From an uncultured Candidatus Binatia bacterium (GTDB lineage Bacteria; Desulfobacterota; Binatia; Bin18), in the NCBI GenBank assembly GCA_965214605.1, contig OZ243961.1, positions 2,752,001-2,816,000 on the forward strand: a stretch of DNA of 64,000 bases, in the 5' to 3' direction. Of the stretch, positions 4,201-56,075 are shown one piece after another; position 1 is the stretch's first letter; every line of letters begins with the position of its first letter. Made by a program: the position numbers and the translations under genes. Under the pieces are notes generated by a model. The model was not told where the DNA came from. It was given only the letters and a program-made list of their open reading frames with translations, and ran no database searches.

Positions 4201-4660
4201 GGTTGCTGCCCGTCAGGGTTTTTTCAAGTCGGTGTGTGACTGGATCGGGGAGTGTCTATTCCCCGAGCAAAATTTTCCCAACAACGAACTGACGATAGCC
4301 CGCCGTCAGAAGGAATTACCCATCACATTCATACGGAAACACGAGCAAAAGCTGCAATCGAATCATGACTCTGAAGAAGAGTTTCCCTATGGTCCGAATG
4401 TTATGCAGTTGACTGAACAGCCGAATTTTCCCCCACAATTCTGCTATGACCACTTGGACCGTCGTTCTCGTCCGGTTCGCTGCGCCCCCTTTATAGCGGC
4501 CCAGATAAGCTTAGATGCTCAGGATTACTCTAAGAAGCTCTTGTTTGAACTACGCCAGTTACGCGATTTTGATCAAGAGTGGTTTGACCACGCCTTTGCT
4601 TGGGCGCTGTGTATTGGCCTTGCCGGGCGTCCCACTCTCGCAGAAGGAGTGCGTCCGTGA
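1298..4660 (+). CDS. druH: STY4851/ECs_5259-family protein; putative Druantia type III DruH
   Basis: 1120 aa; GPWAWETIF and FLVTLACEGGLP N-terminal motifs; GTGA overlap with the downstream DUF1998 helicase. Confidence 0.7.
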   Translation: MMTTRRPPDDEKPPLYTYKCKDAEYEQIKDKVRTQMSAALSGRLGPEEERRFAAWFCVYGAETFRRRHEGGPWAWETIFSEIGHALPDSYQSIYKWVETGLELLKRPLLQKSGRRREFLVTLACEGGLPLLLLRRENTHLSRYFRELLTAAAHRVRHTSQADARKMAPHIAARYLPASLRHDVVFQLSGDLIQSIIELQEKVHEATDPIASLDRLEPQWRDRLPLSVEDHTVEALLRNLMGEAKNLAQTERQHWRWRCFLTRRGESWSIERHLELPKRVTGASLQSLLEDWEDSPARLRVLLQTPNGPKPIAVLTRHEGTGDQMVYLCEGLRREIRLEGREAEAGARLFLSQGSKKIELPSVGGQELGPLPWVFIERGSGWEMCSEGSVRCREASVRMLAPDGGHCVAADVQWEELGQAPDFERTLYQIAGTAEWKHSGLGICKIRCASQEASEEHFLLRGDELSELSAVFNLTQPFLGMPTLWVTGQDGIRRINNGLLEWRPVNPPESDWRTDAAACAGKVWIRYRDTDGALRFRRQVEVVPTTTRVEVAQVGAPTEEGLIRLSGLPAVRITVPERAGCQFRTRAVVDGVEIACLSQENLSQFSADLHWPDGRALTLTLPFPRWMAAFVRAGRILPPKQCMVLDRLAAVQAVVQTPNVGERFYLKGRLRARDSVYDGLELWESLPATSECIDFDLHRIQDRLGSMMAATDDLDAFVALRIVDQAGTPLAELEIARFDVALKPDPAHNRVILPLDDLERLSDDWGERITVRMLPLWEPSAMPTELNYDNAAKAWMIPDESQPGPWWILGYDADWARFRPLLWIVEGEKTVAESSELVQAVREPDPERRQEKLRTLVNDLAADAEHADWTRIFDYLQLTRTYPASSIDLFRHLIGCPEAMVMGLLKSGDEEFNLLWSLSDQLPFSWYLVPVTCWHLAAKRYFDTLRAGLGDSDPDGRLLVSVFEKFRQRVAARQGFFKSVCDWIGECLFPEQNFPNNELTIARRQKELPITFIRKHEQKLQSNHDSEEEFPYGPNVMQLTEQPNFPPQFCYDHLDRRSRPVRCAPFIAAQISLDAQDYSKKLLFELRQLRDFDQEWFDHAFAWALCIGLAGRPTLAEGVRP

Positions 4661-10600: not shown

Positions 10601-10899
10601 GATTGGGGCAATTTACGTTCTCTGAGTCAATACCTAACCGACTGCCTCATGCACGAGAACTCCGATTGACCTGGATTGACGACGTTGCCTGTATCATACG
10701 ATTCGACCAGGGCATGGGTTATTGGCATGGTAAACCTCGTGCTCCTGAATCACAGGGAAGCTTCCCGTTTGAGCGACCTGTGGCGAAGCAGATTGAGTGG
10801 TTTAAATTACGTGAGATTGATATTCAAGCAGGGCATCCGTCCCATCCCACCTATTGGTATGTCAGCCCAGTTCAAAAAGCTGTCTCAATGCGTCCATGA
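4657..10899 (+). CDS. druE: Large DEAH-box helicase with Zn motifs and DUF1998; putative Druantia DruE
   Basis: TGSGKT, LYPLNAL, DEAH, SAT, TTMEMGVDIG, QRAGRAGR; several CxxC; DUF1998 YLFDTASGGAGY...CxxxCxxCL; GTG 4657 overlaps upstream TGA. Confidence 0.8.
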   Translation: MRIFTSLAEQLNRGATRAALGLLSFRSDVLREHLRCLFQSPPGTGDAFLADPVFEATFGWRPGKTNLGELSGKLLHPDIVKALREPYKNFTKEYTFSERPYLHQLEAWQALIKAEPPRSVLVASDTGSGKTECFLVPVLHDLASELDRRKSRLTGVRALFLYPLNALIKSQRDRLTAWAEPFGGDIRYCLYNGDTPNEGKPQWRSEVCDRKTLRANPPPILVTNATMLEYMLVRAEDKPILEQSQGKLRWIVIDEAHNYVGSQAAELALLLRRVLHAFDCRAEEVHFVATSATIAGSGNNAEDSLRDFLADIAGVPPNRVSVVWGKRHVPSLPAVSHGRNRRSPVDVSALGDLSPQELFKTLARDSRVRHWRSALLKKAHSLSQLAEMGGGNDDKTVCHTNTTLRLLDWCTQAVDQKGEPLLPLRCHFFQRALKGLWACANTDCPGRRQTPLDDRDWPFGKVFLERRQLCDACENPVYELVQCGACGAEYLSGEEKVVEEGDERLEPRLAQDEDEFQQELESLVDEDDAESEEPAKEEPRDGLLRLLVRSDIAESNPVGLRSNGFLDWEQHEGIRVHLLVPDPADRCLRCPCCNTRDRYGNLFRPVRLGAPFLLQTAIPILLRHLPPYVSNTTDLPFGGRRLISFTDSRQGTARFAVKMRLETERDFVRAVLYHSVADRARSTDSQDLDKLRRDIAGLEQAIDSSDGLIKDVLTKTRDEKRNELQSLSAPALGRLSWHDAQDKLLNNPRFERWLLPPLREQTLDLVDRRLAELCLWREFFRRPKRQFSLETFGLLQLGYPAVDKINRVPPVAAHHGVKLEEWRSLVRVTLDFYIRGGQSVTIPRDMLRWTGYPGSPTLVIAPRQEKVTKDQRSWPSVRTAATRRSRLVRLLAYALRLNPEQSQDQGQIQEFLDVLWKDVKPLLNRTESGYNLELGQQAEIMQVREAWLCPVTRRLLPVTFRGVTPYLPEKPDDDLARCQKVDMPVVPHPFWLEADQEAAEQWLETDPAVCRLRDLGVWSNMNDRVARFSPYFRSVEHSAQIQGVTLSQRENDFKAGKLNLLICSTTMEMGVDIGGLTAVAMNNVPPHPANFLQRAGRAGRRRERAAVSFTLCKSTPHGEEVFRNPLWPFTTALSSPRVSLQSAPIVQRHINALSLAAFLAQVGSDSLLRLTTSWFFESTTDDSSAPAKRFRDWCQTAARNDTLQNGIRQLVRHTCLDGRSAEDLLDNTAGMLGQVADAWHAEINALLESREIVKTRTENSKPERAVNLQLERIRREYLLSELTTRNFLPGHGFPTNLVSLVTTTMEELKRRRQQREDNRAVRNGYPARQLSLAIRDYAPGTDTVLDGRVYRSDGVTLNWHVPVDQEGPREIQSLRWVWRCRSCGASGTRPTMPQSCFHCGDKPCLTRFEYLQPAGFAVDVRSQPHNDITIPQYIPVRDPLIFLEGTAWLSLPSSRLGRYRVSTHGSLFHRTDGLHGKGFAVCLRCGRADSMVTNERLPGVFADERGNPIPHKRLRGGKKNDKEKACPGSNEPWAIKQNLRLGLVTHTEVLEIQLRDPTNDCPVDDITAYSLSVALRRALTQWLGIEEQEVGCTVALRRGREEERVYSSYLFDTASGGAGYVSQAINWFPELFRRAQDILTCPQRQCDLVCHACLLTYDTQHQLDKLDRHKPLALLSDTFLNALTLPSALQVFGPKTRLEMEPLGQALSRELQRHAVKEIRIFLGGEAKDWTPLDWRLHDELLRLRDIPLSVRLIVPRTTLNRLESSQRNDLAALASAIRAKVYLPETTPYTDKPTLVMEIDGEKRSTCWAASTVDALAPSAYWGSGEDGAQFVRIEYDRPLSRSISNRWHQEDVNELRSTPGALHEISIGKELDGSSHQFGPRAWQLVFDKVPELQERFDGSQPLAELHYSDRYLRSPLAVLLLRGIVSTLGRYPGGIVVNTRLSVATSQLRRNDIADPLLFWHDWRDASDRRTVFENVFEGLGQFTFSESIPNRLPHARELRLTWIDDVACIIRFDQGMGYWHGKPRAPESQGSFPFERPVAKQIEWFKLREIDIQAGHPSHPTYWYVSPVQKAVSMRP

Positions 10900-41431: not shown

Positions 41432-44400
41432 TTAAATCCCACGCGGCCGGATATAGCGCTGGTAGACTTTGGGCAGCTCGGTCGGCAGCGAGGCCACATC
41501 GTCGAGCACCAAGTAGCGCGACGGTTCGCACATCTCGCGTAAATAATCATGGCCGGCCTTATCAACCGTCAGACAGAAGGTCAGCACCCCGGCCTCTTCG
41601 GCTTCGCGCAGGGCAACCATGGTGTCCCGAATACCGTACGTCGTGGAGCGTCGATCCGGACCGTAATCCATGTCTTGAGGAAAGCCATCACTCAGCAGGA
41701 TTAAGAGCTTGACCCGACACGCCATCTCTTTGAGTTTTTCCAAAGAATGCCGCACCGCCGGGCCCATCCGGGTCGAGCGTTTGGGTTCGATGGCGCCGAT
41801 GCGCCCTTTGACTGTCGGCGACAAAGCCTCGACAAACGACTTGACGTGGTAGAATTCGATGTTGTCCTTTCCCTGGCCTGAGAAACCATAGATGGCGTAG
41901 GAGTCGCCGATCTCTTCGAGGGCCTCTGCCATGAGCACCAAGGTCTCTTTGGTGACGTCGATAATGCGGCGCGGAGCGGCACGGGCTGGGGGCGCCTGCC
42001 GGTCATCGGACTCTTTGTCTCCGGCGTCACGCGCCAGCGGCTCGTCCGTTGAGGCGCTCATATCGAGCAAAAAGAGGGCGGCCACATCGCGCTCGGTCTG
42101 ACGCCGTTCGGTGTACAGCTTGGCCGAGGGAACGAGCCGGGTGCGCATATCGACCACCGCCGTCACCACGGCGTTCAGATCATACTCGTGGCCGTCTTCA
42201 AGGCCACGCACCAGCCGATACTGTTCCGGCCGGATGCGTTGGAACTCGTGCTTGATAGCCGGGGTAAGGGCCGTATAATTGTTGAGCGTCTGAGCAAAGA
42301 ATTCGCCGGCGTCACCGGTCAGAACGATCTCCCGTAAGCGACACCAACGGGTGCGGTAGTCGGCGATCTGATAGTCCCACTCGTCATAGTAAAAGGTCAG
42401 GCCTTCTTCGCGTTGGGGGTGACGGTGGACGCCCGGAATGGCCGGATCGTTCGTGGCGGTGATTTGCTCCATGTCGCCTTGGCCCGGAAGTTTCCCAGTC
42501 AAGTCGCTGACGTATAGCCCTTGAGGAGTGAGCTTGTTCTGCTTGCCCTCACGAATCTGGAGGTCGACACCAGCCTCAATCAGGGCTTTGAGTTCTTCGG
42601 CCGACAGGGGACTCTCGCCCTCTTCCTCCTCCGTTTTGTCCTCTAACTGCAACTTGGGCATATCGATCGGCTCTTGAGCCGGCGGTGGACTCTCGTCATC
42701 ATCCATGTCCGGATCAATCAACGCATCACCGCTCAATTTGTCAAAGACGAGAGAGCCAAAGTCCGAAGCGTCGTCCGGGTTGAGACGAGCGGCGGCCAGC
42801 GAGGATAGGAGCCGCAGGTAGATCTTGGCCGCTGTTATGGCCGAGTCGTACACCGACCAAGTGGACGCTGTATTCTGTTGGAATCGGAGATTGTCCTCAT
42901 GCACTTTGTGCCCGTTTGTGGTGAGCTGATGGGCAGAGGGCAGCAGGTCTGACCACAGTGCGCTCAGGGAAACGAGGGTTTCGGGCAGCAGGGAGGGCAG
43001 GGACGCGTCGTTCAGCCACGTCACGTCTGCGCTGAGGCCTCGATAGACCGTGGCCAGGCAGGCTTGGACACGCTGGGTTTCGGTGAGTACAAACAGTGCC
43101 TCAACAATGTCGGGATGAACAAAGCAGCGAAAATACTCGGCGAGGCCGCCTACCGGAGTCGCATCTTTACGCATGATTTGACGGACCGCGGGCGGGAGAT
43201 CTGACCAGAGCCGGCCAAGCGAGAACTCGTAGGTGCCGAACTCGCGGCGGCCGGCCTGCTGAGCGGCTAAGGTACGGAACAACCGAAAGTTTTCCTCGTA
43301 GGTCTCAAAGACCTCAATCCGGCCCGGCAGGGGAAGTTCCTCGCCGCAGCTCATGGCTTCTTCAAGCGCGGGTGGGTAGGAGAAAAACTCTTGGCGTCGA
43401 ATGCCGACGGGGGTGCCGGTCAACATCTGGACGTATTTACGCAGCAATTCCTGGACATCGTCGAGATCAATGCCCGGAGACATCTGGCGCAGGACCTGAA
43501 AGCTGGTGCGTGACTCCAGGGCAAAATAGGCGAGCCCGGCCTCGGGGGTGTCGACGGCGATGCGCGCGCCTGTTGCTAACCAGTCCTGGAGCCCCTTATG
43601 ACCGGTTTCTTCATACGCCCGGGGTAAGGCCCGGAGCAGCGGCGGGATGGCAGCCGGAAAGGTGTTGGCGAGGCTGATCAAGCGGTGTTGCAGGTCTGGC
43701 TGTTGAGCCAGCCCCACGGCCTTGGCCACCGGTTCCAGCAACGGGAGTAGACCCGCGACCGCTGGCGGGACTGAACGAATCACCGGGGTCAGGGCGGACA
43801 GATAAAAAGACCGCAGCACTGGACTGAGGCTTGACAGGGTTGGTGGCAGACCAAAAAAAATCTCATTGGCCGCTGTGGCAGATCGGTCGGCCGCCTGTTG
43901 GACGGTGGACAGAAACGCCAGACGTTGGGGCTGACTCAAGGCCACAAAACCGTCTGGCAAACGTGTATAAAACGTCCACGGTCCAGACTCTTGGACCAGG
44001 ACGCCGAGTTTTGCCCAGGCCGCTATTTCCTCGGGACTCAGCACTGGGAGGGCGGCGGCTGCCGACGAGAAATAGGACACGGCCAGAAACTCCCCCTTCC
44101 AGCCTTTGCAGCCCAGCAGAAGCCGCCCCTGCTCGGCCCAAGCACGCAGGCGCGGGCCAAAGGGGACGGGCAGCTGATCAAAAAGCGGGGCCGAGGCTTG
44201 GAAGAACTGTGTCCCAAGGCGACGTGAGACCCGCAGGACATCACGACCGATCGCGACCCATTCTTGGGCCTGCTCAAGGCCGCGCCGTCGTACCAAGTCA
44301 GGTGGAATCGCAAAATAGGCAACCGCGCCGTCGCGTGAAGCTGGAACTTGCCCAGCCAAGTCCTCGCCGACTGCCGTCCAGCGTCCAAAACCCTCGGCGC

Positions 44401-44614
44401 CAAACACCCGCCAGGCGGTCGGCGCTTGACGACAAAAGGCTTGGGCCAGGGTCAGTGAGATCTCGGCCAGCCGGTCCCCTGTGCTCAGAATCGTCTCGCG
44501 TACCTCGGATGTCAGCGCTTCGAGTTCGGCCGACAGCGTCCGGCCCGGTTCGTCTCCAAGCAGATGGCGGGTATCAAACCACAGGTGACGGAGGGAAGAC
44601 ATCAGAGATAACAC
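41432..44614 (-). CDS. NorD/CbbO-type large vWA adaptor protein
   Basis: [37 protein letters not shown]; start 44614 or 44602. Confidence 0.8.
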
Positions 44615-45552: not shown

Positions 45553-45850
45553 GCCGTCCTCCTTCGCAAGAAGCTCCCTGCAAATCAGAACACTTAGCGA
45601 AAGTCAATGGAGGAATGGGGAGCTCTTATGGGACGTACTGTCCATGGATGCGCGAAGATGGATTGTTCCCTTTATGAAGTTGATAGCGGTTCTATTGGTT
45701 GGAGTCTTATGCACAGGGACCAGTGCGGTTGGGGCGGTTCGTTACGGGAGTGCGCGACAAGAGCAAAGTAGAGCGGGACCGCCCGCTCTACTTTGTCGGG
45801 CTGCTTTCATTCATTCCTGTCGATCGAAATGTTGACGAAAAAAGAGAAAC

Positions 45851-46849
45851 TCACGCCTCCTCTGTGTCGTGTAAGATCTGTCTGGCTTTCCTAGAGCCGG
45901 TTTTTGTGCCGTGTCTGCGGGCCGCTAGCCGGGCGAGAGAAATATGGCCTAGGAAGTGCTGCTGCTCGACTAGATGCAGCCGGGCCGAAAACGCGGTCTT
46001 GTCAAGCACGGCGAGCTCGCCGCCGATGAGGACCACGTTGCCCCCCACCACGGGAACCACCACGCTGCGCGGCCACGCCATCTCGAAGGTTGTACGGGCG
46101 GCCTCATAGCTGGAGATGCCTGAGTGCAGGTTAGTGGCAACCACACCGCCCGGAGCCAGACAGGCTCGACATTCGGTGTAAAATTCTTGGGTGGTCAAAT
46201 GGTATGGCACACCCTCAACGCGGTAGGCGTCGAGCAAGATCAGGTCATAGAACCGCCGGCCAGCGGTCTGGCGCAGATATTCCCGGCCGTCCTGGACGGT
46301 GATCTGTTGGCGGCCGTCTTGGATAATGCCAAAGAAGCGTTCGGCTGCCTCAACGACAAGCGCATCAAGCTCAACGGTATGCAGCGTCACTCGCTCCAGA
46401 TAGTGGTGGAGCACCATTTGCAAGCGTCCCCCGCCCAGGCCGATGAGGAGAATGCGTAGGGATTGGGGCCGCCAGATCAGAGGGAGGAGCATGGCTTGGG
46501 TATAGGCTGAGGGGAGCACAAGGGGGTCACTGAGGTCAAGCCGTGACTCGATTTCCTCAACCTGGCTGCGCGGGTGGCGGTAACACAGCAAGAGCTGGTT
46601 TCTTGTGCGGCGGACAATGATGTGGTTATAGGCCGAGACCTGCTCGTGCACGATGCCGGACCGAGCTGCGGCACGGACGGCGGCCAGACGTTGGCAAATG
46701 GCGGCCAAGTTGTGCTTTTGCCAGGCGGAGAAGACGGCCGGACGAGGGGGAGAGGTGAACGACGCTCTCTTGGTGATGAGGAGGTCCTCATCGCTGCCCT
46801 TTGAGGAGCGTGCCGAGAGTCTGTGCCGCATCCAACTCATCCAGCTCAT
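45851..46849 (-). CDS. Spermidine synthase-like SAM-dependent methyltransferase
   Basis: IGLGGG, VELD, DGR, LLDAY, TQEFY; start uncertain. Confidence 0.75.
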   Translation of the reverse strand: MSWMSWMRHRLSARSSKGSDEDLLITKRASFTSPPRPAVFSAWQKHNLAAICQRLAAVRAAARSGIVHEQVSAYNHIIVRRTRNQLLLCYRHPRSQVEEIESRLDLSDPLVLPSAYTQAMLLPLIWRPQSLRILLIGLGGGRLQMVLHHYLERVTLHTVELDALVVEAAERFFGIIQDGRQQITVQDGREYLRQTAGRRFYDLILLDAYRVEGVPYHLTTQEFYTECRACLAPGGVVATNLHSGISSYEAARTTFEMAWPRSVVVPVVGGNVVLIGGELAVLDKTAFSARLHLVEQQHFLGHISLARLAARRHGTKTGSRKARQILHDTEEA

Positions 46850-46926
46850 TGAGAGTGTCCGACCTAGGCTGCGTGGGCCGCTCGGTCTTGCCCGCTCAGC
46901 CTTACCTCGGGTCCGTATTTATGGTG

Positions 46927-47343
46927 TCATTTGACCGTGGCGATGGCGAGGCGGTGAAGACCCTCAGTCCGAGCCAGATCCATCACACTCACCACCCGAC
47001 CGTGCTGAACCTCTTGGTCGGCGCGGACCACGAGTGTAATCTCACTGCCCTTTTCCCGCTCGGCCTGGAACACGTCCTGAAGTCGCTCAAGGCTCGTCTC
47101 TTGTTCGTTCAAAAACAGGCCGCCGCTCTTGTCTAGACTCACGGTGAGGCGTTTTCGTTCCACTTGAGGGACAGCTGAAGAGGCCTCGGGCAGGCTGACG
47201 TCAACCTGTCCTTCTCTAGCCTGATTAAATGTGGCTAGAAAGCTGAAAGTGATGAAGAAGAAGATGAACATGTTCATGATGATGTCGGTCAGCGCCACCG
47301 AGTCGAGGCTCAGGTTGGGTTGTGAGTGCTTGCTAAACTGCAT
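46927..47343 (-). CDS. ExbD/TolR family protein
   Basis: ALTDIIMNMFIFF TM with conserved Asp, VSLP, RAD. Confidence 0.88.
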   Translation of the reverse strand: MQFSKHSQPNLSLDSVALTDIIMNMFIFFFITFSFLATFNQAREGQVDVSLPEASSAVPQVERKRLTVSLDKSGGLFLNEQETSLERLQDVFQAEREKGSEITLVVRADQEVQHGRVVSVMDLARTEGLHRLAIATVK

Positions 47344-47998
47344 CGCTGAGCGACTCCTGGAGCTGAGCTTGGGTGAGCATGTCGACGAGGCTTTCGGTAT
47401 GTTCTTCGGTGAGTCGGGTCAGATATCTGACCCGGGTGGTGAGGTGATGATAGATCAGATAGTACGGAATCGTCACACTGAGACCGGCGGCGGTGGTAAT
47501 CATGGCTTCGTAGATGCCGCCAGCCAATATATTAATTGTAATCTGATCGCCCATTGCCTCCCAGCTCATAAAGGCGCGGATCAGACCAATAATGGTGCCC
47601 AGAAATCCCAACATCGGTGCCACCCCAACCACAGCGGCTAGTATGCCCAGATAGGACTCCAGACCGGCGACTACAGCCCCGCCTAAACGTTCAAGCCGCC
47701 GGGTCAATTCGCTAGAAGCGAACTCACGGTACACAATGGCGGCTTCAAACAGCCGACTGAGCGGGCTGGTGTATTCCCGGCAGACGCTCAGAGCGAGCGA
47801 GATATTGCCCTCGGCCAGCTGTGCCTCAAGACGTCGGTTGAGGGTGCTGAGGTGGTTCCGAAAGCGCCACAGGGACCAGAATTTGGCCAGTACAACGGCC
47901 AAGGCGACTACCGACAGGGCGGCGATTATGAACAGTACGGTGCCGCCCTTGGCTAGAAAGAGCCAGACTCCTTGATCTGTTGGTGAAATGGTGATCGT
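47333..47998 (-). CDS. MotA/TolQ/ExbB proton channel protein (no canonical start before the first TM)
   Basis: APMLGFLGTIIGLI, LAGGIYEAMITTAAGL; frame open upstream through GVWLFLAKGG to a stop at 48010. Confidence 0.8.
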   Translation of the reverse strand, partial: TITISPTDQGVWLFLAKGGTVLFIIAALSVVALAVVLAKFWSLWRFRNHLSTLNRRLEAQLAEGNISLALSVCREYTSPLSRLFEAAIVYREFASSELTRRLERLGGAVVAGLESYLGILAAVVGVAPMLGFLGTIIGLIRAFMSWEAMGDQITINILAGGIYEAMITTAAGLSVTIPYYLIYHHLTTRVRYLTRLTEEHTESLVDMLTQAQLQESLSDAV

Positions 47999-48065
47999 GA
48001 TATCCTTTCAGCCTTTTTTGTTATCACGCTCACCGTTTTTGGCATAGCCCGGTCTTTGCCGTCGA

Positions 48066-50501
48066 TTAGACTTCACAGTTCTTGGTCACGAAATCCTGGA
48101 TCTGTTTTTTGAGCTGCGGGTCTCCTAGTCGGTTCAGCATGGCTCGGATCCCACGGGCGGTCCGACAGCCGGCCTGCGCGTTGCCAAGCGAGACGTTCAG
48201 AACGGCGGCCTCGTACGAGCCGCGAAACCAGATGGGATCCCCGGCCTGTGAGTCTTGGAGCATTTCCTCCCAGTAGGCCAGCGCTTGTTTCTTATTGCCG
48301 TTGACTTCGGCGATACGGGCTAAGCCGGCCAGGGAGACCAGGGAATAGGCTCCATCCTGGAGGTCGGCGTACAGGGTGGCCGCCTGGTCGTAATCTCTGA
48401 CATCCAGATACAGCTGGGCTAGCTCATATTTGAATTTGTCTTGGGATTCGTCGGCGGCAAAGTCGTTGCGGGCAATTTTATCGCTGTACAGGCGGGCCAG
48501 GGTCCGTTTGGCGGCCTGAAGATTTTCCGCGTCGTTCCGTTTTGTGAGGGTCCGAATGTCTTGCACTAAGACCTGGTCAAGGGCTGTGAGCAGTTCGAGA
48601 CGTTTGGCGGTGTCATAGTTGGCAAAGATGGCGTCCACGTTCTTTTCCAGCTCAACAAACAACCCGGCCTTCTCCAGCGTAATCAGCCGGACGCGGGCCA
48701 CAGTTTCAAAGGCATCTTTATGGACCGGATACTGTTGCTCGAAATCCTCTAACAGATCGGCGATCTGGGCGGCGTGAGTGTCGGTGTCCTCGCTGAGTAA
48801 GACCGCATGCATAAACTTGACCCGGCCGCGATAGTTCCTGAGATTATCGCGTTTTTTGCCCCTGGGATTCTGCCCCTCAAACGCGGCGCTACTCTCCTCA
48901 AAGGCGACCAGAGCGCCGGCGATCCGTTCTTTGAGGTCGTCGGAGCTGATCCCTAGATCTTTGTCGGGATCTTCTTCCCACTGTTCGTAGATTGAGAAGT
49001 AGCTCTGGAGGGTGGCAAAGTCGGCCCGGAACCGAAATTCGGTATTGCCGCGAACTTTCTGGTACGCATTCACGGCTTCGAGATAATTTTCCTGCCCGTG
49101 GTGATACTCGCCAAGTCGAAAGTGCGCCTCGTGCAAAGCTTTTGACCGGTTCTTGGGATCGCGCCTGATGAGCTCTCTGGCGGCGTCCACATACAGGCGA
49201 CCGTTGGTCTGATTCTGTGACCGGGCAAACAGGGCCTCGGCAGCTTTAAAACGCAGGTAGGAGGCGTTGATCACATTTTTGGACGGCTGGCTCTTTAAGT
49301 AGCTGTCTAGGGCGGTGATCGCCTGGCGTGACCTCCCGATTCTCAGCAGGGCGTCGCCGAGATAATACTGGGCGTCCTGCTTATAGCGCTGGGCGCGCGG
49401 GTCGTCTGATTCCAGGACCGTCCGGAGGACCGGAACGGCCTTAGAGTACTGGCCTTTGCGAATAAAGGTTGCCGCGTTGTTCCACGGCAGATAGGGGTTG
49501 AGGGCGAGCTTTTCGTCTTCGTTGAGCTCTTTGGCTAGCAGGGCATCGACCCTGTTCTTCCACGAGGTGTCGGCATTTTGAGATTCTTTGACCCCCAACG
49601 CCAGACCGATTGCCCGTTCCCGGGTCTCTTTGCGCTGTCTGCCCCGTTCTTGCAGGCTGCGCTCAAACAGGCTGGTGGCTTCGACTAGCTGTTGTTCGAG
49701 CAGGTCTTCGGGCGAGGGACCTTGGTTGGGGCGCCTTCCGGTCCTGGCCAAACGGCGGGTCTCTTTGAGGGCGTTGCGGACCTTGGCACGCATGCTAGTG
49801 CTGGTCGCCCGATCTTTCAGCAGCGTCTCAAAGTCTCTGATCGCCCAGTCATACTCGCCAAACTCACGCTCGCTCAGAGCACGTCCAAACAGGGCTTCAC
49901 GTTTGACGCTCGACGCCGGCCCGGAGGCGAACTCGGTGAAGCCGTTAATCGCCTCTTCGAGCAGTCTGGTTTGCCGTTCGCCCTCATACACAAAGGATCC
50001 GATATAATTGAGCCAGTTCAGAAAATACAACGAGCGGGCGGCCACATCCTGGGCGTCTCTCCACCTCGCCTCTTCATAGAGCGCCTCAAGATCACCGTCG
50101 ACAGCCATGATCTCTTGCATCCAGCGCTCCATAGCGTCGGTGTTGGCCTTGTAGATATCTTGCAGGGGCGCACTCAGGTCGGTGTAAATCTGCCGTACGG
50201 TCGAACGGTTGGTCTTGACTGCGGTGGCGAGATCGGAGGCCGCGACAAACTCCATGGCCAGCGGCCCAATGGCCGCGATGGCGTCGAGCTGGCCGTTCTT
50301 GCCGTTGTTCTTCAGCGTATTGGCGCGGCTTTTTGCCTGGGCGCTCCGGGACGACAAGTCCGAGATTGTCGCCGCGCTACTTGAACGAGGGGCTGTAAGG
50401 CCGAACACCCAGGTCAACAGGACACACACAACAACGTGAATACGGAACGCGGAACGTCTTTGAGGCCCACGCTTCATCGTTCTGATTGCTGCACTCATCA
50501 T
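48066..50501 (-). CDS. Exported TPR-repeat protein (811 aa)
   Basis: Signal-peptide-like N-terminus; TPR-like units (AQYYLGDALL, AHFRLGEYH, KYELAQLY). Confidence 0.75.
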   Translation of the reverse strand: MMSAAIRTMKRGPQRRSAFRIHVVVCVLLTWVFGLTAPRSSSAATISDLSSRSAQAKSRANTLKNNGKNGQLDAIAAIGPLAMEFVAASDLATAVKTNRSTVRQIYTDLSAPLQDIYKANTDAMERWMQEIMAVDGDLEALYEEARWRDAQDVAARSLYFLNWLNYIGSFVYEGERQTRLLEEAINGFTEFASGPASSVKREALFGRALSEREFGEYDWAIRDFETLLKDRATSTSMRAKVRNALKETRRLARTGRRPNQGPSPEDLLEQQLVEATSLFERSLQERGRQRKETRERAIGLALGVKESQNADTSWKNRVDALLAKELNEDEKLALNPYLPWNNAATFIRKGQYSKAVPVLRTVLESDDPRAQRYKQDAQYYLGDALLRIGRSRQAITALDSYLKSQPSKNVINASYLRFKAAEALFARSQNQTNGRLYVDAARELIRRDPKNRSKALHEAHFRLGEYHHGQENYLEAVNAYQKVRGNTEFRFRADFATLQSYFSIYEQWEEDPDKDLGISSDDLKERIAGALVAFEESSAAFEGQNPRGKKRDNLRNYRGRVKFMHAVLLSEDTDTHAAQIADLLEDFEQQYPVHKDAFETVARVRLITLEKAGLFVELEKNVDAIFANYDTAKRLELLTALDQVLVQDIRTLTKRNDAENLQAAKRTLARLYSDKIARNDFAADESQDKFKYELAQLYLDVRDYDQAATLYADLQDGAYSLVSLAGLARIAEVNGNKKQALAYWEEMLQDSQAGDPIWFRGSYEAAVLNVSLGNAQAGCRTARGIRAMLNRLGDPQLKKQIQDFVTKNCEV

Positions 50502-50522
50502 GTGGGTTTACTCCTCATTCAA

Positions 50523-51758
50523 CTAGCTCAGGTCTCGCAGGAAGCGTTCCATTTCCGTTTCAAACCGACTGCCAAAGGTCAGGACGAGGATCTGCCTGGT
50601 CAGCTGTCTCTCGTCGGTCAGCGGAATGAACTCTCCCCCTCCGGCTTTGGCGATTGAGGCCATGGTGTCCCGGAACTCCTGATAAAAATCGGGCAAGGGG
50701 GATGGGCTAAAGGCGACGTTTGTCAGATGGGCGGTCTGTTTCCACAAGGCTCGCTCAAAGTCTTCATGCATCTTGTCGGCCAGGTCCATGGCGCTCACAT
50801 AGCCGCCCCCGGCCCGGAAGCTCTGGGCGAGATTGAGAATACTGCTGACTGATTCGGGGTGCGGAGAAGAGCCCGACACCACGACCACAATCCGCCGCGA
50901 GTTCTTGCGCCAGCTGAAATCGTGAATCGCCACATCAACGCCCTCGTACACCGCTTCGGGCCAGTCGCCCCCGCCACCGGCTTCGAGGGTGTCGAGAAAG
51001 CTCTGCAGCTTCGAGGTGTTGAAGCTGAAATCGACCCAGCGGGTGACGAACTCTTCGCCCCGATCACGATAGGCCACAATGCCAACTCGGGTGGTATCGA
51101 CCATGTTTTGGAGCGCTTCGATCATGTTGCTGAGGCGCTCTCGGACCGACTCAATCACAAACTGCATGCTGTCGGTCGCGTCCACGACAAGAGCGACGTC
51201 AATCCCGACCCGACGGAGACCACCGACGCGGTCGCCGATGTCACCGCCGACCACACCGTTGAGCGATCCGCTCAGATTGGTGATCTGGGTAGTCAGCCCT
51301 TTGAGATCATCAGAGGTACGACCTACCTGAATCGTGACCGGACTGAAGGCGTTACTCACAATCGGCAAGGCGGTCGGCTTGATGGCCGCGACACGGCCAG
51401 CCAACGGCGGGGGGCCCTCCGACCACTTCTTAACCTTCTTATGCGGCAGCATATCCATTGATAAGGCCCCGGGTAGGTCTCGCAGAGACGGCTCACCCTC
51501 CCAGTCGTCCGGATTTTGTTCGTCGACCTGCGCCGCCGGGTCTTGCGCCGCCGGTAGGGCAGCCACTTTTATGAGCTTGCGGTCGTTGTTGATTACGGTC
51601 ACGGCGGTGGTGGCAAACACCGACAGCAGCAGTAGATGGGCGACGGTGGAGACGGCAAACCAGCGCGCGTTCTTGCCGAACCGGCCTCTGGAAAGCCACA
51701 GGTCTTCTTGGATGTCGGTGACACCGGGCTGGATGTGTTCTTTTTCAGCAGAAGCCAT
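50523..51758 (-). CDS. Membrane-anchored vWA protein with TonB/TolA-like SxxxH helix
   Basis: TM WFAVSTVAHLLLL; low-complexity linker; vWA VVDATDSM, GIVAYRD, GGGDWPEA. Confidence 0.8.
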   Translation of the reverse strand: MASAEKEHIQPGVTDIQEDLWLSRGRFGKNARWFAVSTVAHLLLLSVFATTAVTVINNDRKLIKVAALPAAQDPAAQVDEQNPDDWEGEPSLRDLPGALSMDMLPHKKVKKWSEGPPPLAGRVAAIKPTALPIVSNAFSPVTIQVGRTSDDLKGLTTQITNLSGSLNGVVGGDIGDRVGGLRRVGIDVALVVDATDSMQFVIESVRERLSNMIEALQNMVDTTRVGIVAYRDRGEEFVTRWVDFSFNTSKLQSFLDTLEAGGGGDWPEAVYEGVDVAIHDFSWRKNSRRIVVVVSGSSPHPESVSSILNLAQSFRAGGGYVSAMDLADKMHEDFERALWKQTAHLTNVAFSPSPLPDFYQEFRDTMASIAKAGGGEFIPLTDERQLTRQILVLTFGSRFETEMERFLRDLS

Positions 51759-51809
51759 AGGAGTACTCCTCCTCTTCCGGCTCCTCTCAGAGCCGAAGAG
51801 CGTGCGGTC

Positions 51810-52229
51810 TTAGCCCGCCCCCTGCTGGGCGGCGATGGCAATCTGGTTCGCACCGGCCCGCTGGGCAGCCGATAGAATTTTGACGGCCTCGCCCAGAATG
51901 ACCGATTGGTCGCCCTCAAGGACGACCGGGACATCCTGCATCGTCTCGATAATGGGCCGCAGATACAGTTCTAATTCTGCCAGAGCGACCGGCTGATTAT
52001 TGACAAAAATTTCTTTCTGGGGCGTTACCGTGACAATGATCTGGCGCGGTTCGGACTCGGTTTCTTGGACTCGTGGCAGATCAATTGTGGCGCCCGACTG
52101 GACCATCGCCACACTGGTCACCATAAAGATGATCAGCAGGACGAGGAAGATATCGGTCAGGGGGGTGATGTTGATCTCGGACATGACCTCATCACGTCCG
52201 CCCCTTTTCTTCGGACCGTTCATTGCCAT
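51810..52229 (-). CDS. ExbD/TolR family protein
   Basis: SEINITPLTDIFLVLLIIFMV. Confidence 0.92.
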   Translation of the reverse strand: MAMNGPKKRGGRDEVMSEINITPLTDIFLVLLIIFMVTSVAMVQSGATIDLPRVQETESEPRQIIVTVTPQKEIFVNNQPVALAELELYLRPIIETMQDVPVVLEGDQSVILGEAVKILSAAQRAGANQIAIAAQQGAG

Positions 52230-52244
52230 GTCTGTGTCTCCTTC

Positions 52245-52895
52245 CTAAGCGGCGGACTGGACCGCTTCTTTTCTGCTGGTGCGGATCGCGTCGATAATGC
52301 GATCCGCACCAATCGTCATGGCGGTATCAATACGTTCCAGCTTGGTATTGAAATAATTGTAGAAGATAACCGCAATAATGGCGACCGCTAAGCCCAGCGC
52401 CGTGGCCACCAGGGCCTCAGAAATACCGCCGGCCACAATGGCAAATCCGCCGCTGCCCTCGACCGCCATGTTTTGGAAAGATTTGATGATCCCGACGACC
52501 GTGCCCAGCAGGCCAATAAACGGTGCACTCACACCGGTGGTGGCCAGAATCCAGATTGCGCCCTTGAGCCCCTCGGTCTCTTCAAGGCGGCGCTCTTCGG
52601 CCAGGCTGGACAACTGCTCGGTGGATTCGTCCTGCTGGCGAGAGATAATCTCGCCGAACACCCGACCGGCCGGCTCTTTGCTCTGCCCCTGGCTGGTCTC
52701 TAAGGCGGCATTAAAATCACCCTGCTGCAAGGGAGTGACCAGGTCTCTGGCCAGATGTAAGGTTTTCGTCATAATCCCTCTCAGGGTCCATAGCCGCTCC
52801 AGAATGATGGTGATACACACCACCGACATGATGATAAGCGGGTAGCTGACATACCAGCCCTGGTGAATCATATCCATTACGCTTAAGCCTTCCAC
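52245..52895 (-). CDS. MotA/TolQ/ExbB proton channel protein
   Basis: APFIGLLGTVVGII, GISEALVATALGL; GTG 52895 with AAGGAGG. Confidence 0.9.
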   Translation of the reverse strand: MEGLSVMDMIHQGWYVSYPLIIMSVVCITIILERLWTLRGIMTKTLHLARDLVTPLQQGDFNAALETSQGQSKEPAGRVFGEIISRQQDESTEQLSSLAEERRLEETEGLKGAIWILATTGVSAPFIGLLGTVVGIIKSFQNMAVEGSGGFAIVAGGISEALVATALGLAVAIIAVIFYNYFNTKLERIDTAMTIGADRIIDAIRTSRKEAVQSAA

Positions 52896-52959
52896 GTTCC
52901 TGTCCTCCTTGTGGTTAAAAACGATGATCTCTAGATGGTTGCCATCGTCCACTTTTGTG

Positions 52960-53565
52960 TTACTGACCCAGATTTTCCTCTTTGGTCGAAGAGGGAGGGG
53001 GCGGTTCTGGACCAACGAAGTTGTCTGGCACGGCGAACTCGTGCAGAAATTGCTCAAGCCAGTCGATCTCGGCCTTGTGGTGGATGAGGCCGTGTTCAAT
53101 AATCTTGGCCTGGGTGGGAGTGACCTTTTTTTGGGCTGTCCAGTAGGTCTGTTGATCGACAATCCAAGCCAACCGTTTTTGGGCCCATTTCAGATGTTTG
53201 TTCAGGGCAGCGCGCAGTTCGTCGGGCTTGATGAAATGCCCAAAGGCTAAGGCCGCGTTAAGGGGATCAAACACCTTCTCTCGGCTCTTGGTGTCAAATA
53301 ACAGGCGACGCAGCTCGGTCTGCAGATACCCACGACCGGCCGAGGTGATCTGGTAAATCTGCCGCATCGGATAGCGCCCTTTCTGTTCGGCCCAGGCTTT
53401 CTCCACATATCCGGAACGTTCGAGCTGGCCGAGGTTGTAGTACAGCGATCCCCCGCTGAGATTGATATACGTTGCGTATAGCCGCCGTTCGACCTCCTGA
53501 CGCAGCTCGTAGCCGTGATACGGTTGCTCGGACAGAAGACCAAGAATGACGAGTTGAACGCTCAC
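52960..53565 (-). CDS. PadR-family transcriptional regulator
   Basis: ILGLL, HGYEL, GSLYYNL, YQITSAG; long C-terminal helical domain. Confidence 0.9.
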   Translation of the reverse strand: MSVQLVILGLLSEQPYHGYELRQEVERRLYATYINLSGGSLYYNLGQLERSGYVEKAWAEQKGRYPMRQIYQITSAGRGYLQTELRRLLFDTKSREKVFDPLNAALAFGHFIKPDELRAALNKHLKWAQKRLAWIVDQQTYWTAQKKVTPTQAKIIEHGLIHHKAEIDWLEQFLHEFAVPDNFVGPEPPPPSSTKEENLGQ

Positions 53566-53583
53566 AAAATATCCTTCCTAAAA

Positions 53584-53778
53584 TAGTTCACGTGGACTAA
53601 TTGCATAAAGGGCTGATAAACACAATATCAAGAGCCAATATCCAAGAAACGAGCGGCGGCCTGTATTAAGCGGCTGAGCTACGTCCGGTAGACGCAATTG
53701 AATCGGCTTTGTGCCGGGGTTTACTCTCCTCAGAGTAGTTTGCACGGACTACATAAGCGAGATTCAAAATTTTGTCAA
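53584..53778 (-). promoter_or_regulatory. Promoter with two TAGT-N8-ACTA inverted repeats (putative PadR operators)
   Basis: TAGTtcacgtggACTA 53584-53599; TAGTttgcacggACTA 53736-53751; TTGACA (53778-53773), 17 nt, TATGTA. Confidence 0.6.
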
Positions 53779-53827
53779 GAAAAATTTCGAAGAAAAACGC
53801 TCGGCTCCCTGTCTTCGTTATGGAGAA

Positions 53828-54529
53828 TTACGTCACATGATCTTTCTCAATCACCCCCCGCTCGTGGAGTAAGTTGAGAATAATATCAAGGCTATGGTCC
53901 CACAGCTTGACCTTGAGCTGGTCGTACAAGGTGAAGTTGGCCAGCCGTAACATGGGTCGTTTATCGACAAAGTCGATGACATTGATGCAGCCAAAGTCCT
54001 GCTCAATATTAAACACACGGCCGTCGGTGAGACCCAGAACGGAGGCCAGCAGGGCGTTATTGCTCCCACCGTGGGCAACGACGAGCAGCGTCCGCCAGTC
54101 GGCTTGGGCCAGGATTGTCTCCAGAAACCGTTCCCCGCGTTCTCGGACCTGGCGGAAACTCTCGCCGCCCAGATAGGGCTCGTCCCAGCCGGTGGCCGGA
54201 CTGGTAAAGAACCGCTGGACGGAGCGGAAAATATCGGTCAGGTTCTGCGTGGCGGTCAATTCATCACTCGGGGTGATCTCTGTCAGGTTTGGGTCGAGGT
54301 GGACCTTGAGGCCCGTCTCGTCGGCAATAATCCTGGCAGTTTCGTGGGCGCGTGACAGCGGGCTGGAATAGATGCGGTCAAGACGGACAGCGTGAAACAG
54401 AAGGGCCGCGGTAGCGATTTGTTCTCGGCCGCGCTCGGTCAGGGCTCCGTTGCCGATCGCTCCCTCGTTGGCGGTCCGCTGATACAAGGTTTCTCCGTGG
54501 CGCATGAGATAGATCCGGCGGCGCTCCAT
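53828..54529 (-). CDS. Histidine phosphatase family protein
   Basis: MRHGET, SSPLSRAHETA, GES, VAHGG. Confidence 0.88.
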   Translation of the reverse strand: MERRRIYLMRHGETLYQRTANEGAIGNGALTERGREQIATAALLFHAVRLDRIYSSPLSRAHETARIIADETGLKVHLDPNLTEITPSDELTATQNLTDIFRSVQRFFTSPATGWDEPYLGGESFRQVRERGERFLETILAQADWRTLLVVAHGGSNNALLASVLGLTDGRVFNIEQDFGCINVIDFVDKRPMLRLANFTLYDQLKVKLWDHSLDIILNLLHERGVIEKDHVT

Positions 54530-54554
54530 GGTGGTCTCCCTTTGCACCGGAGTG

Positions 54555-56075
54555 CTAATAGGCCTTGGCAAAAATGATCCGGCGACGGCTCGGCTGGCCG
54601 CTCAGCACACACGTGCCTTCTTCTTCTGGAGCGTTGAGCGGAATACACCGAATCGTGACGTTCAGATCATTTTTGATCGTCTCTTCAACCTCCGGCTGGC
54701 CACTCCAGTGGCTGAGAGCAAAGCCGGCGTGAATCTCCGGTTTGTCAGGCTTGTGAGGGGTGAAGAAATCGTACAGGTCGGCCTTTGAGTCAATGCGGTG
54801 CGTATGTTGATCCCGAAAGCTGCGGGCTCGGTCGAGCAGAGTGTGCTGGATGTCGTCGAGTTGGGTACTGAGCGTTGCGACGAACTCGGTCCGCGACTGG
54901 CTGAAGCGCTCTGAGTGCTGTCGGTCGCGGCGACCGACAAAGACCGCGTCGTTTTCAAGTTCACGCTGGCCGACCTCAAGACGGATGGGCACGCCTTTTT
55001 TAATCCACGACCAGACCTTTTCTCCACCCGAGGCGTCCCGCACATCAAGTTCGACCTGCAGAGGCTGGTCATCGTAGCGCAGGCTCCGCAGCTCTTGGGC
55101 CAACCGCTCGCAGTAGGCTGAAATCTTGGCCCGATTACCCTTGCGCAGCAGGGGCAAAATAACGACCTGACGAGGAGCGAGTTTGGGGGGCAGGACGAGG
55201 CCGTTATCGTCACTATGGGTCATGATTAAACCACCGATGAGGCGGGTCGACACTCCCCATGAGGTCGTCCAGGCGTAGGCTTGCTGGCCGCTGGTATCAG
55301 CGAACCGAATCTCGGACGACCGGGCAAAATTCTGTCCTAAAAAGTGTGAGGTGCCGGCCTGGAGCGCCTTGCGGTCCTGCATCATGGCTTCGATAGAATA
55401 GGTCGATACCGCACCGGGGAAGCGCTCGCTCTGGGTCTTTTCGCCTTTAATCACCGGAATCGCCATGTAACGCTCGGCAAAATCGGTGTACACGTCGAGC
55501 ATGCGGATGGTCTCTTGTTGGGCTTCTTCGGCGGTGGCGTGAACCGTATGACCCTCCTGCCAGAGGAATTCAGCGGTGCGCAGAAAAATACGCGGCCGCA
55601 TTTCCCAACGCACGACGTTGGCCCACTGATTGATCAGCAGCGGCAGGTCGCGGTAGGATTGGACCCACTTGGCAAATGTCGCCCCAATAATGGTTTCGGA
55701 GGTGGGGCGGACCACTAAGGGTTCGGTCAGTTCTCCGGACGGAACGAGCTGGCCGTCCGGTCCGGCCTCCAGCCGATGGTGGGTGACCACGGCACATTCT
55801 TTGGCAAAGCCTTCGACGTGTTCGGCCTCTTTTTGCATAAAGCTGAGCGGAATAAAGAGTGGGAAATAGGCGTTTTGATGGCCGGTGGCCTTGAACATGG
55901 CGTCTAAGACCCGCTGGATGTTCTCCCACAGGCTATAGCCCCAGGGCTTGATGACCATGCAGCCCCGGACCGCTGAGGTTTCGGCTAGATCAGCGGCCCG
56001 GATGATCTGTTGGTACCACTCGGTGTAGTCTTCTTCTCGGGTGGGAGAAATCGCCGTCTTCAGGGCTCGTTTCAT
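54555..56075 (-). CDS. proS: Proline-tRNA ligase (archaeal/eukaryote-like type)
   Basis: RPTSET, QWANVVRWE, FLWQEGHT, SWGVSTR, C-terminal FAKAY. Confidence 0.95.
   Translation of the reverse strand: MKRALKTAISPTREEDYTEWYQQIIRAADLAETSAVRGCMVIKPWGYSLWENIQRVLDAMFKATGHQNAYFPLFIPLSFMQKEAEHVEGFAKECAVVTHHRLEAGPDGQLVPSGELTEPLVVRPTSETIIGATFAKWVQSYRDLPLLINQWANVVRWEMRPRIFLRTAEFLWQEGHTVHATAEEAQQETIRMLDVYTDFAERYMAIPVIKGEKTQSERFPGAVSTYSIEAMMQDRKALQAGTSHFLGQNFARSSEIRFADTSGQQAYAWTTSWGVSTRLIGGLIMTHSDDNGLVLPPKLAPRQVVILPLLRKGNRAKISAYCERLAQELRSLRYDDQPLQVELDVRDASGGEKVWSWIKKGVPIRLEVGQRELENDAVFVGRRDRQHSERFSQSRTEFVATLSTQLDDIQHTLLDRARSFRDQHTHRIDSKADLYDFFTPHKPDKPEIHAGFALSHWSGQPEVEETIKNDLNVTIRCIPLNAPEEEGTCVLSGQPSRRRIIFAKAY

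Follow-up and report, generated by a model that had tools for sequence, protein, structure and literature searches.

We analyzed a seven-gene locus in a 64-kb window (positions 2752001-2816000 of contig OZ243961.1) of the genome of an uncultured Candidatus Binatia bacterium, an assembly of 4.37 Mb that is 99.99% complete. Coordinates below are those of the window unless the genome is named. The locus reads padR-exbB1-exbD1-vWA-TPR-exbB2-exbD2 on the minus strand and is a real, strongly conserved operon. Its central product is a membrane-anchored protein with a von Willebrand factor type A (vWA) domain, which is probably a transducer coupled to an ExbB-ExbD motor, and we consider it likely that the operon encodes a PadR-controlled third system of the Ton/Tol kind, apart from the TonB and Tol-Pal systems of the same genome. 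By the architecture described for the class, rather than by sequence comparison with its type protein from Tichowtungia aerotolerans, the locus appears to be a member of the 'vWA force transducers', which were proposed in 2025 as a computational prediction (PMC12204202; Mol Biol Evol 2025;42:msaf138). An earlier note on this DNA had called the locus a candidate uncharacterized envelope machine. At the bench that description stands, but the class and the very mechanism had already been published as a prediction, so that the mechanism proposed in the note, while well supported by the sequence evidence, is not new.

All seven genes were found, closely spaced and in the order that the earlier note had given, by analysis of open reading frames (ORFs), Pfam and NCBIfam. 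From padR to exbB2 the intergenic gaps are 82, 15, 51, 21, and 70 nt, and exbB2 and exbD2 overlap by 11 nt. ExbB1, a MotA/TolQ/ExbB proton-channel subunit of 210 residues (52245-52877; Pfam MotA_ExbB, E 4.6e-31), was called as an ORF of 52245-53162, with the ATG at 52877 as the likely true start. It is followed by the ExbD/TolR subunit ExbD1 (51810-52229; 139 residues; Pfam ExbD, E 3.4e-26), by the vWA protein, our candidate force transducer (50523-51758; 411 residues; Pfam VWA over residues 187-317, E 1.3e-10), and by a tetratricopeptide repeat (TPR) protein of 811 residues that matches several Pfam TPR families (48066-50501). The second motor pair comprises the MotA/TolQ/ExbB subunit ExbB2 (47333-47995, listed as an ORF of 47333-47902; Pfam E 3.5e-24) and the ExbD/TolR subunit ExbD2 (46927-47343; 138 residues; Pfam ExbD, E 8.2e-24). 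The transmembrane Asp is kept in both ExbD proteins, within ITPLTDIF in ExbD1 and within ALTDII in ExbD2.

The vWA protein consists of one N-terminal transmembrane helix, a linker of Pro, Gly, and acidic residues, and a C-terminal vWA domain, as the earlier note had described, and the strings AVSTVAHLLLL, DATDS, and SGSSPH are all found in it. Both the Pfam VWA match and an AlphaFold2 (AF2) model built with 16 homologues agree with this plan: the model has a helix at residues 31-61, a stretch with pLDDT below 50 at residues 59-179, and a vWA domain at residues 173-410 with pLDDT of about 90. Because basic residues precede the transmembrane helix, the N-terminus would be cytoplasmic and the vWA head periplasmic. 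The structures closest to the vWA domain are the vWA domain of BatB (3ibs, E 1.6e-9), integrin alpha-1 I-domains, and Rpn10; for BatB and the integrin I-domains the Foldseek template modeling (TM) score by target length was 0.63 to 0.67. Searches of Pfam and NCBIfam returned no TonB_C (PF03544) or TolA match, and NCBIfam gave neither a Bat match nor any other family for the protein.

Within the transmembrane helix lies Ser37-x3-His41 (51636-51650, minus strand), the SxxxH signature of TonB and TolA for docking onto their motors. When the vWA protein was aligned with 18 class homologues, the His was present in 19/19 sequences and the Ser in 18/19 (one Ala), and the His41 column was invariant in both curated vWA alignments (A1 and A2). 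Phe48 occupies the Leu position of the motif, and homologues have Phe or Leu seven residues after the His. A pattern scan of public genomes gave 52 further loci, from named metagenome-assembled genome (MAG) records, and a Ser-x3-His helix precedes the vWA domain in 44 of them. Among the other eight, contig ends truncate three, the frame of one is broken, three have long, different N-termini without a nearby motor, and one was left uncounted because its match to the pattern fell outside any hydrophobic helix. On the far side of the membrane from the N-terminus, the predicted topology places a juxtamembrane box, W86-EGEPSLRDLPGAL-99 (51462-51503, minus strand), with conserved columns, those of G88, P90, and L99 showing no variation in A2 and that of L92 almost none in A1. 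By analogy, this box may be the counterpart of the TonB/TolA motor box of PMC12204202, in which case it would contact ExbD.

Conservation of the cluster was assessed in a class sample of 41 genomes, ranging from genus to class level, and, for synteny, in 20 class loci. The vWA protein was present in 36/41 genomes, and ExbB, ExbD, and vWA genes lay together on one strand in 19/20 class loci, with a TPR match in 17/20. Four gene orders were observed, namely exbB-exbD-vWA-TPR, vWA-TPR-exbB-exbD, vWA-exbB-exbD-TPR, and exbB-exbD-exbD-x-vWA. The same four genes are kept together through rearrangements, and this is the strongest evidence that they work together. Among the further loci, ExbB and ExbD genes flank the vWA gene in 39/52, and a TPR gene is present as well in 36/52. 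The best-conserved protein of the cluster is ExbD1, with 98% identity in locus L042 compared with 86% for the vWA protein. Relatives of the vWA protein at 52-58% identity come mostly from Candidatus Binatia MAGs, with a few under other MAG labels, and MAGs of Myxococcales and Polyangiaceae contain close homologues of the cluster. Outside the class, Pfam searches placed vWA, ExbB, ExbD, and TPR genes together in one Myxococcales MAG and one 'Deltaproteobacteria' MAG, and found, in each of two alphaproteobacterial loci, an SxxxH-vWA gene together with ExbB and two ExbD genes. Planctomycetota vWA homologues (L086-L088, L091, and L094) were considered as members and rejected, as they have no SxxxH helix and no ExbB or ExbD within 8 kb by tblastn.

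The earlier note had named three findings that would speak against its proposal of a TonB/TolA-like energy transducer: an SxxxH motif that is not conserved, a cluster that is not conserved, and homologues lying consistently beside TonB-dependent receptors and a standard TonB. None of these was observed. The motif is conserved in the alignments and loci counted above, the cluster is kept across the class and beyond it despite changes of order, and the homologues are not so placed. The proposal survives on all three counts, although docking and force transmission are properties that we infer for the protein.

A system of this kind would stand beside two others in the same cell. The genome contains exactly 4 ExbD genes and 7 matches to the MotA/ExbB family. 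The Tol-Pal cluster, TolQ-TolR-TolA-TolB-Pal (0.677-0.681 Mb), includes one of these ExbD genes, and the Ton cluster, ExbB-ExbB-ExbD-TonB (1.273-1.275 Mb), another. Since the Ton and Tol-Pal clusters each have their own ExbD, the two motor pairs of the window are additional. All four motors of the genome share just 25-38% identity with each other, which marks them as old paralogues. The two TonB_C matches of the genome are at 0.679 and 1.273 Mb, the nearest of 9 matches to TonB-dependent receptors is at 2,719,339, TolB matches at 0.678 Mb, and OmpA/Pal matches are at 0.677, 0.762, 2.578, and 2.873 Mb. These whole-genome family searches place every match outside 2752001-2816000, and a Pfam scan of 33 other ORFs of the window found no TonB_C, TonB-dependent receptor, TolB, or Pal, in agreement with what had been read from the window earlier. 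The Ton cluster itself (genome 1272749-1274777) holds two ExbB-like genes, one of them encoding 461 residues with a long N-terminal extension. Its TonB ORF, taken from the first start codon, has no His in the N-terminal hydrophobic stretch; the TolA of the genome has LSVALH. A further gene of the MotA/ExbB family (genome 2714456-2714788) has no adjacent ExbD match and lies about 5 kb from a TonB-dependent receptor gene (genome 2719339-2720652).

The vWA domain (50529-51242, minus strand) has a modified metal ion-dependent adhesion site (MIDAS), formed by D193-x-T195-x-S197, G262-GGD265, and S295-GSSPH300. The canonical five residues (DxSxS ... T ... D) are not all present, as GGGD265 stands in place of the MIDAS Thr and S295-GSSPH300 in place of the fifth MIDAS Asp. 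The observation that the site starts normally with DATDS and reads SGSSPH at the position of the downstream Asp is thus borne out by the sequence and by the alignments. Among the further loci, the first motif, DxTxS, is found in 48/52 and GGGD in 51/52. The last motif is (S/T)PPH in 38/52, all of which are Binatia-type motor-linked clusters, and an Asp-keeping DAPP in 9/52, mostly Planctomycetota and alphaproteobacterial loci plus a few others. The five Planctomycetota homologues rejected above share GGGD and keep DAPP. As judged from these alignments, the altered MIDAS has become fixed in the lineage, together with an invariant His, and does not reflect the decay of a single gene.

For comparison, the text of PMC12204202 describes its class as proteins in which a transmembrane helix bearing an SHLS motif leads, through a disordered linker that includes a motor box, to a vWA domain at the C-terminus. 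The genes adjoin tolQ-like and tolR-like genes and an uncharacterized TPR gene, and an AlphaFold3 model docks the helix onto the motor through the conserved His. No phenotype is given there for the class; the text itself states that no deletion phenotypes have been reported, and suggests a role in gliding. The taxa that it names are Proteobacteria, Planctomycetes, Verrucomicrobia, Bacteroidetes, and Rhodothermaeota, and the strings 'Binat' and 'Desulfobacterota' have 0 matches in the text of the article.

The sequence features of the locus suggest the following mechanism. ExbB1 and ExbD1 would form a proton-driven 5:2 motor in the inner membrane, and the vWA protein would dock on the rim of this motor via its single transmembrane helix (Ser37-x3-His41), as TonB and TolA do. 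The W86-L99 box, outside the membrane, probably engages the periplasmic part of ExbD, and the disordered linker of about 110 residues would span the periplasm. The vWA head, with its modified metal site, would grip a partner and, driven by the flow of protons, pull on it or remodel it; the best candidate for this partner is the secreted 770-residue TPR solenoid or its client in the outer envelope.

The TPR protein has a cleavable signal peptide, a conserved DGDLEALYE motif, and two C-terminal Cys residues, and its AF2 model is an all-helical solenoid with a mean pLDDT of 87. The N-termini of its homologues are ordinary cleavable signal peptides without a conserved His, and by these sequence features the protein is exported. 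A His in its N-terminal hydrophobic stretch had raised the protein as a second membrane-anchored transducer, a candidate that was rejected on the S-x4-H spacing and on the homologues, which lack a conserved His at this place. A fold search with the model returned generic TPR scaffolds only, with TM scores of 0.25 or less over the whole model. Complex prediction of TPR residues 60-811 with vWA residues 172-411 gave a median score of 0.40 (runs of 0.40, 0.27, and 0.45), while the best of three controls scored 0.00; the mark applied is reached by 116/157 solved complexes and 2/215 mismatched pairs, but at scores of 0.60 or below just 18 of the 157 solved complexes passed, and both passing mismatches fall there. 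Contact agreement in the vWA-TPR runs was at least 45%, and the partner had a pLDDT of at least 70. The earlier note had the transducer working on the TPR protein. The co-occurrence of the two genes favors this, but the complex prediction is weak, and we regard the TPR protein only tentatively as the direct target of the vWA protein.

The TPR protein could instead be a periplasmic scaffold that positions the motor units, including ExbB2-ExbD2, with the vWA head binding an envelope component encoded elsewhere. In the Campylobacter flagellar motor, the TPR proteins PflA and PflB hold the stator units. Two chains of the periplasmic flagellar scaffold of Campylobacter, 9hmf_K and 9hmf_L, appear at ranks 10 and 21 among the matches of our TPR model. 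The TPR gene also co-occurs as tightly with the motor genes as with the vWA gene, and the weak vWA-TPR prediction points the same way. However, the two flagellar matches are generic, with TM scores of 0.21 and 0.14 by query length and root mean square deviations of 27 to 39 Å, and they rank beside many unrelated eukaryotic TPR scaffolds. We regard a pure scaffold as unlikely, and keep the TPR protein, or a client of it, as the preferred partner of the vWA head.

The second motor pair has a narrower distribution than the core. Orthologues of ExbB2 (at least 58% identity) were found in 21/41 genomes; by group, it occurs in 8/8 of the genus, in 19/24 others of the family, and in the one genome of the next family, where the ExbB2 gene and the vWA gene are on different contigs. 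It was not found in the other ten families of the 41-genome class sample, nor in five family members whose genomes are 74-96% complete. In several genomes a molybdopterin oxidoreductase gene or other DNA separates the TPR gene from ExbB2-ExbD2. Confined to its own and one neighboring family, and detached from the core in several genomes, the pair ExbB2-ExbD2 is an accessory to the core rather than a member of it, a second motor gained within the order to which the window belongs. The notion of two motor pairs in one machine, put forward in the earlier note, holds in that both pairs are present here, but the second is lineage-limited and, in some genomes, separated or on another contig. ExbD2 and ExbD1 are 26% identical over 74 residues.

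The start of exbB2 is itself unusual. No ATG, GTG, or TTG precedes the first transmembrane segment of ExbB2, and the reading frame extends upstream without a stop as far as a TGA at 48008-48010. The sequence TGA-AAG-GAT-ATC-ACG-ATC-ACC, which has no canonical start codon, is common to the window and four further genomes of the genus. At the same place, two more members of the genus have ATT, and ATG stands in one genus member and in four genomes of other genera. The layout without a canonical start is thus found in 7/8 genomes of the genus (the window and 6 of 7 others). The start is likely ATC at 47995, 7 nt after AAGGA, which would give an ExbB2 of about 220 residues and a conserved non-AUG (AUC/AUU) start.

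These features can be joined into a single device with two stators and a regulatory gate, in which ExbB1-ExbD1 and ExbB2-ExbD2 share the vWA arm or the TPR scaffold, with a tuned second motor, a changed MIDAS, and a PadR switch. On such an account the two motors may have diverged anciently, and the AUC/AUU start may hold the second one low and separately tuned. Exchange of the MIDAS Asp for a Ser/His site may have brought a different metal or ligand chemistry, and PadR may turn the machine on in response to an envelope-active small molecule. If true, this would be a conditional force-generating envelope organelle without a described counterpart; we hold the account to be improbable, at about the level of the pure TPR scaffold.

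The first gene, padR (52960-53565, minus strand), encodes a PadR-family protein of 201 residues with a Vir_act_alpha_C-type C-terminal domain (Pfam PF03551, E 5.6e-17). Upstream of it, the promoter and operator region (53584-53778, minus strand) contains TTGACA at 53778-53773, a 17-nt spacer, and TATGTA at 53755-53750, all identified by eye; the coordinate 53778, with which the earlier note had bounded the locus, is the edge of this -35 hexamer. The palindrome TAGTC-N6-RACTA occurs in two copies, one at 53736-53751, which begins within the -10 hexamer, and one at 53584-53599, just ahead of the ribosome-binding site. Both sites that match the pattern in the 64-kb window lie upstream of padR, where 0.04 would be expected in the window. 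A CTTGAC-17-TATRTAGTC..AACTA-like arrangement was seen, again by eye, upstream of padR in the loci of 12 relatives, some copies of it being degenerate. We read this as putative autoregulation, in which PadR would repress its own operon. The padR gene leads the cluster in 9/20 class loci and in 6/52 further loci, all of them from its own or the neighboring family. The padR leader in the genus (window 53566-53780) is about 190 nt long and has two operator-like palindromes; the other family members inspected have mostly one promoter-proximal palindrome near the padR start codon.

Several points weigh against our reading of the operon as a PadR-controlled motor with a vWA transducer acting on the outer envelope. 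No outer-membrane partner was found among the conserved neighboring genes in the loci of 11 relatives, a search with crude ORF picking in GC-rich DNA that a small partner could escape; the flanking or inserted ORFs there were unrelated or unassigned (molybdopterin oxidoreductase, amidohydrolase, MMPL, and others). Metal-dependent ligand binding is uncertain, since the vWA head lacks the canonical fifth Asp of the MIDAS. In the proposed motor box, W86-L99, the AF2 monomer shows no beta-strand. The vWA-TPR prediction falls in a grade, 'weak support', that is more often wrong than right unless the guess is already likely, and ExbB2-ExbD2 has no identified transducer of its own. The padR promoter, read by eye, does not pass a consensus scan: over 45700-54700, promoter and terminator counts were no higher than in shuffled sequence. 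Genome-wide the palindrome is not enriched, with 6 sites compared with 12 for a control pattern, and no wider PadR regulon is therefore indicated. Finally, no experiment on any member of the vWA force transducers was found in the literature, the later follow-up search being at summary level.

Against a motor-coupled transducer of this kind we weighed three further explanations, the first of which concerns its role in the cell and is compatible with the same mechanics. The locus might be a Tol-Pal-like module for envelope integrity or division, with the TPR protein acting like CpoB/YbgF and the vWA head standing in for the TolA C-terminal domain, so that at the septum it would bind a partner in the outer membrane or one linked to peptidoglycan. 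The models that give ExbB1 and ExbD1 their highest scores are those of TolQ and TolR (112.8 and 82.1 bits), and the TPR protein has a weak match to tol_pal_ybgF (E 1.2e-8; 35.6 bits compared with a cut-off of 90.1), but all of these matches are below the curated cut-offs, a complete Tol-Pal cluster is present elsewhere in the genome, and PadR control suggests a conditional rather than a housekeeping function. We hold this role to be improbable, a little more so than the scaffold.

A surface-adhesion or gliding device of the Agl-Glt type would have the motor move an adhesin-like vWA head that couples finally to the substratum, as CglB does in Myxococcus. Such a role is suggested for the class in the text of PMC12204202, and the Myxococcales and Polyangiaceae homologues of the cluster fit with it. 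Here, however, a tether of about 110 residues holds the vWA head to the inner membrane, the protein bears no signal for export to the outer membrane, and the window contains neither an outer-membrane barrel nor other gliding genes. CglB, moreover, is described in a preprint as an outer-membrane lipoprotein, not a TonB-like protein (bioRxiv 10.1101/2020.07.22.216333). We hold a gliding device to be quite improbable. Least probable of all is an envelope complex like that of BatA-E, built of vWA and TPR proteins of the membrane, with the neighboring ExbB and ExbD serving the canonical TonB: among solved structures BatB matches the vWA domain best, and NCBIfam gives the TPR protein a weak, sub-threshold match to Leptospira BatC (25 bits compared with a cut-off of 175), but the SxxxH helix and the motor genes stay with the vWA gene through all four gene orders, the canonical TonB has its own ExbB and ExbD alongside, the vWA protein is without an NCBIfam family, and no gene for a MoxR ATPase or DUF58 protein is found in the window.

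Downstream of exbD2, by 77 nt, lies a gene for a spermidine-synthase-like protein of the methyltransferase fold (45851-46849, minus strand; Pfam Spermine_synth, E 2.4e-10). A gene of this kind stands 3' of exbD2, or directly 3' of the TPR gene, in 6/20 class loci and 5/52 further loci. It is a conserved neighbor that may be co-transcribed with the operon, and is possibly a part of the machine, as a candidate at most. In a Planctomycetota MAG (L087:9458-12427), a related vWA gene is followed by a gene for a 990-residue protein with a Spermine_synth domain. These neighborhoods may reflect coincidence or a functional link.

The window contains a second candidate for a vWA domain, in a 1060-residue protein (41432-44614, minus strand) with a weak C-terminal vWA match (MIDAS start DMSAST; Pfam E 0.0012, below the cut-off) and no NCBIfam family. 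Its gene adjoins ilvE in two relatives from the genus (L023 and L042); it has no adjacent AAA+ partner, the next gene encoding a short-chain dehydrogenase. Farther away, 18126-39220 is a phosphate-starvation neighborhood with genes for polyphosphate kinase, MgtE, a type I phosphodiesterase, PhoX, a phosphate porin O/P, a PstS-like binding protein, two ABC permeases of unusual length at 778 and 542 residues, an ABC ATPase, and a PhoB/PhoR-like two-component pair. At 1298-10896 (plus strand), a 1120-residue ORF without a Pfam match precedes a 2099-residue DEAD/Helicase_C protein with an MrfA-type Zn-binding (MZB) domain.

TonB and TolA were long regarded as the sole arms for transmitting proton-motive energy over the periplasm from motors of the ExbBD/TolQR type. 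If a third arm, with an adhesion-type head, is indeed widespread, then in many bacteria the envelope is subject to mechanical work of an unknown kind. Since the class was predicted in 2025 (PMC12204202), the locus adds no new concept; it adds a clean, well-conserved example in a lineage that the text of that article does not name. It also offers handles for experiments, namely the invariant His, the conserved juxtamembrane box, the lineage-specific change of the metal site, and a defined PadR operator, which could reveal the inducing signal. The traits that appear, by sequence, to be specific to the lineage are PadR control, the accessory second motor, the altered metal site, and the apparent non-AUG start of exbB2.

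Set beside known systems, the locus shares elements with several. Like the Ton system (TonB-ExbB-ExbD), it has ExbB/ExbD motor genes and a partner with an N-terminal SxxxH helix, a flexible periplasm-spanning linker, and a globular head; unlike it, it has no TonB_C domain and no TonB-dependent receptor nearby, and the TonB cluster of the genome is separate. With Tol-Pal and CpoB it shares motor subunits that score best against TolQ/TolR models and a TPR protein encoded alongside, and the LSVALH helix of the TolA of this genome is the same SxxxH helix. In contrast to Tol-Pal, it has no TolA C-terminal domain, TolB, or Pal, and its TolQ, TolR, and YbgF scores are all below the curated cut-offs.

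The Bat operon (BatA/BatB vWA proteins, BatC/BatE TPR proteins) resembles the locus in its membrane-anchored vWA and TPR proteins and in BatB, the nearest solved structure; in the locus, no MoxR-type ATPase or DUF58 protein is present among the scanned ORFs of the window. Bat proteins are not known to be linked to ExbBD or to have an SxxxH anchor. The Agl-Glt machinery of Myxococcus (AglRQS motor, TonB-like GltG and GltJ, vWA adhesin CglB) likewise combines a TolQR-type motor with TonB-like, TPR, and vWA proteins. As described for that machinery, however, an outer-membrane lipoprotein bears the vWA domain, apart from the TonB-like proteins, whereas here one polypeptide has both the anchor and the vWA head, and the window has none of the remaining Glt genes.

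The closest likeness is to the vWA force transducers as described in the text of PMC12204202. In both, a transmembrane helix with a Ser/His signature is followed by a disordered linker with a conserved box, here only a candidate motor box, and by a C-terminal vWA fold, the motor genes (tolQ/exbB and tolR/exbD) are adjacent, and a TPR gene co-occurs. The loci described there for the Planctomycetes-Verrucomicrobia-Chlamydiae (PVC) group consist of TPR, tolQ, two different tolR, and vWA genes, whereas here exbB, one exbD, vWA, and TPR are followed by a second exbB-exbD pair. Two tolR-like genes beside one tolQ-like gene are thus not found in our locus, where the second exbD comes with its own exbB2, although two adjacent exbD genes do occur in a distant class member (L040) and in the alphaproteobacterial loci L092 and L093. 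The tolR pair is in any case typical rather than defining of the PVC loci, because the article says 'often'. What sets the present locus apart from the class as described there is the leading PadR gene with its conserved operator and the (S/T)PPH motif in place of the fifth MIDAS Asp.

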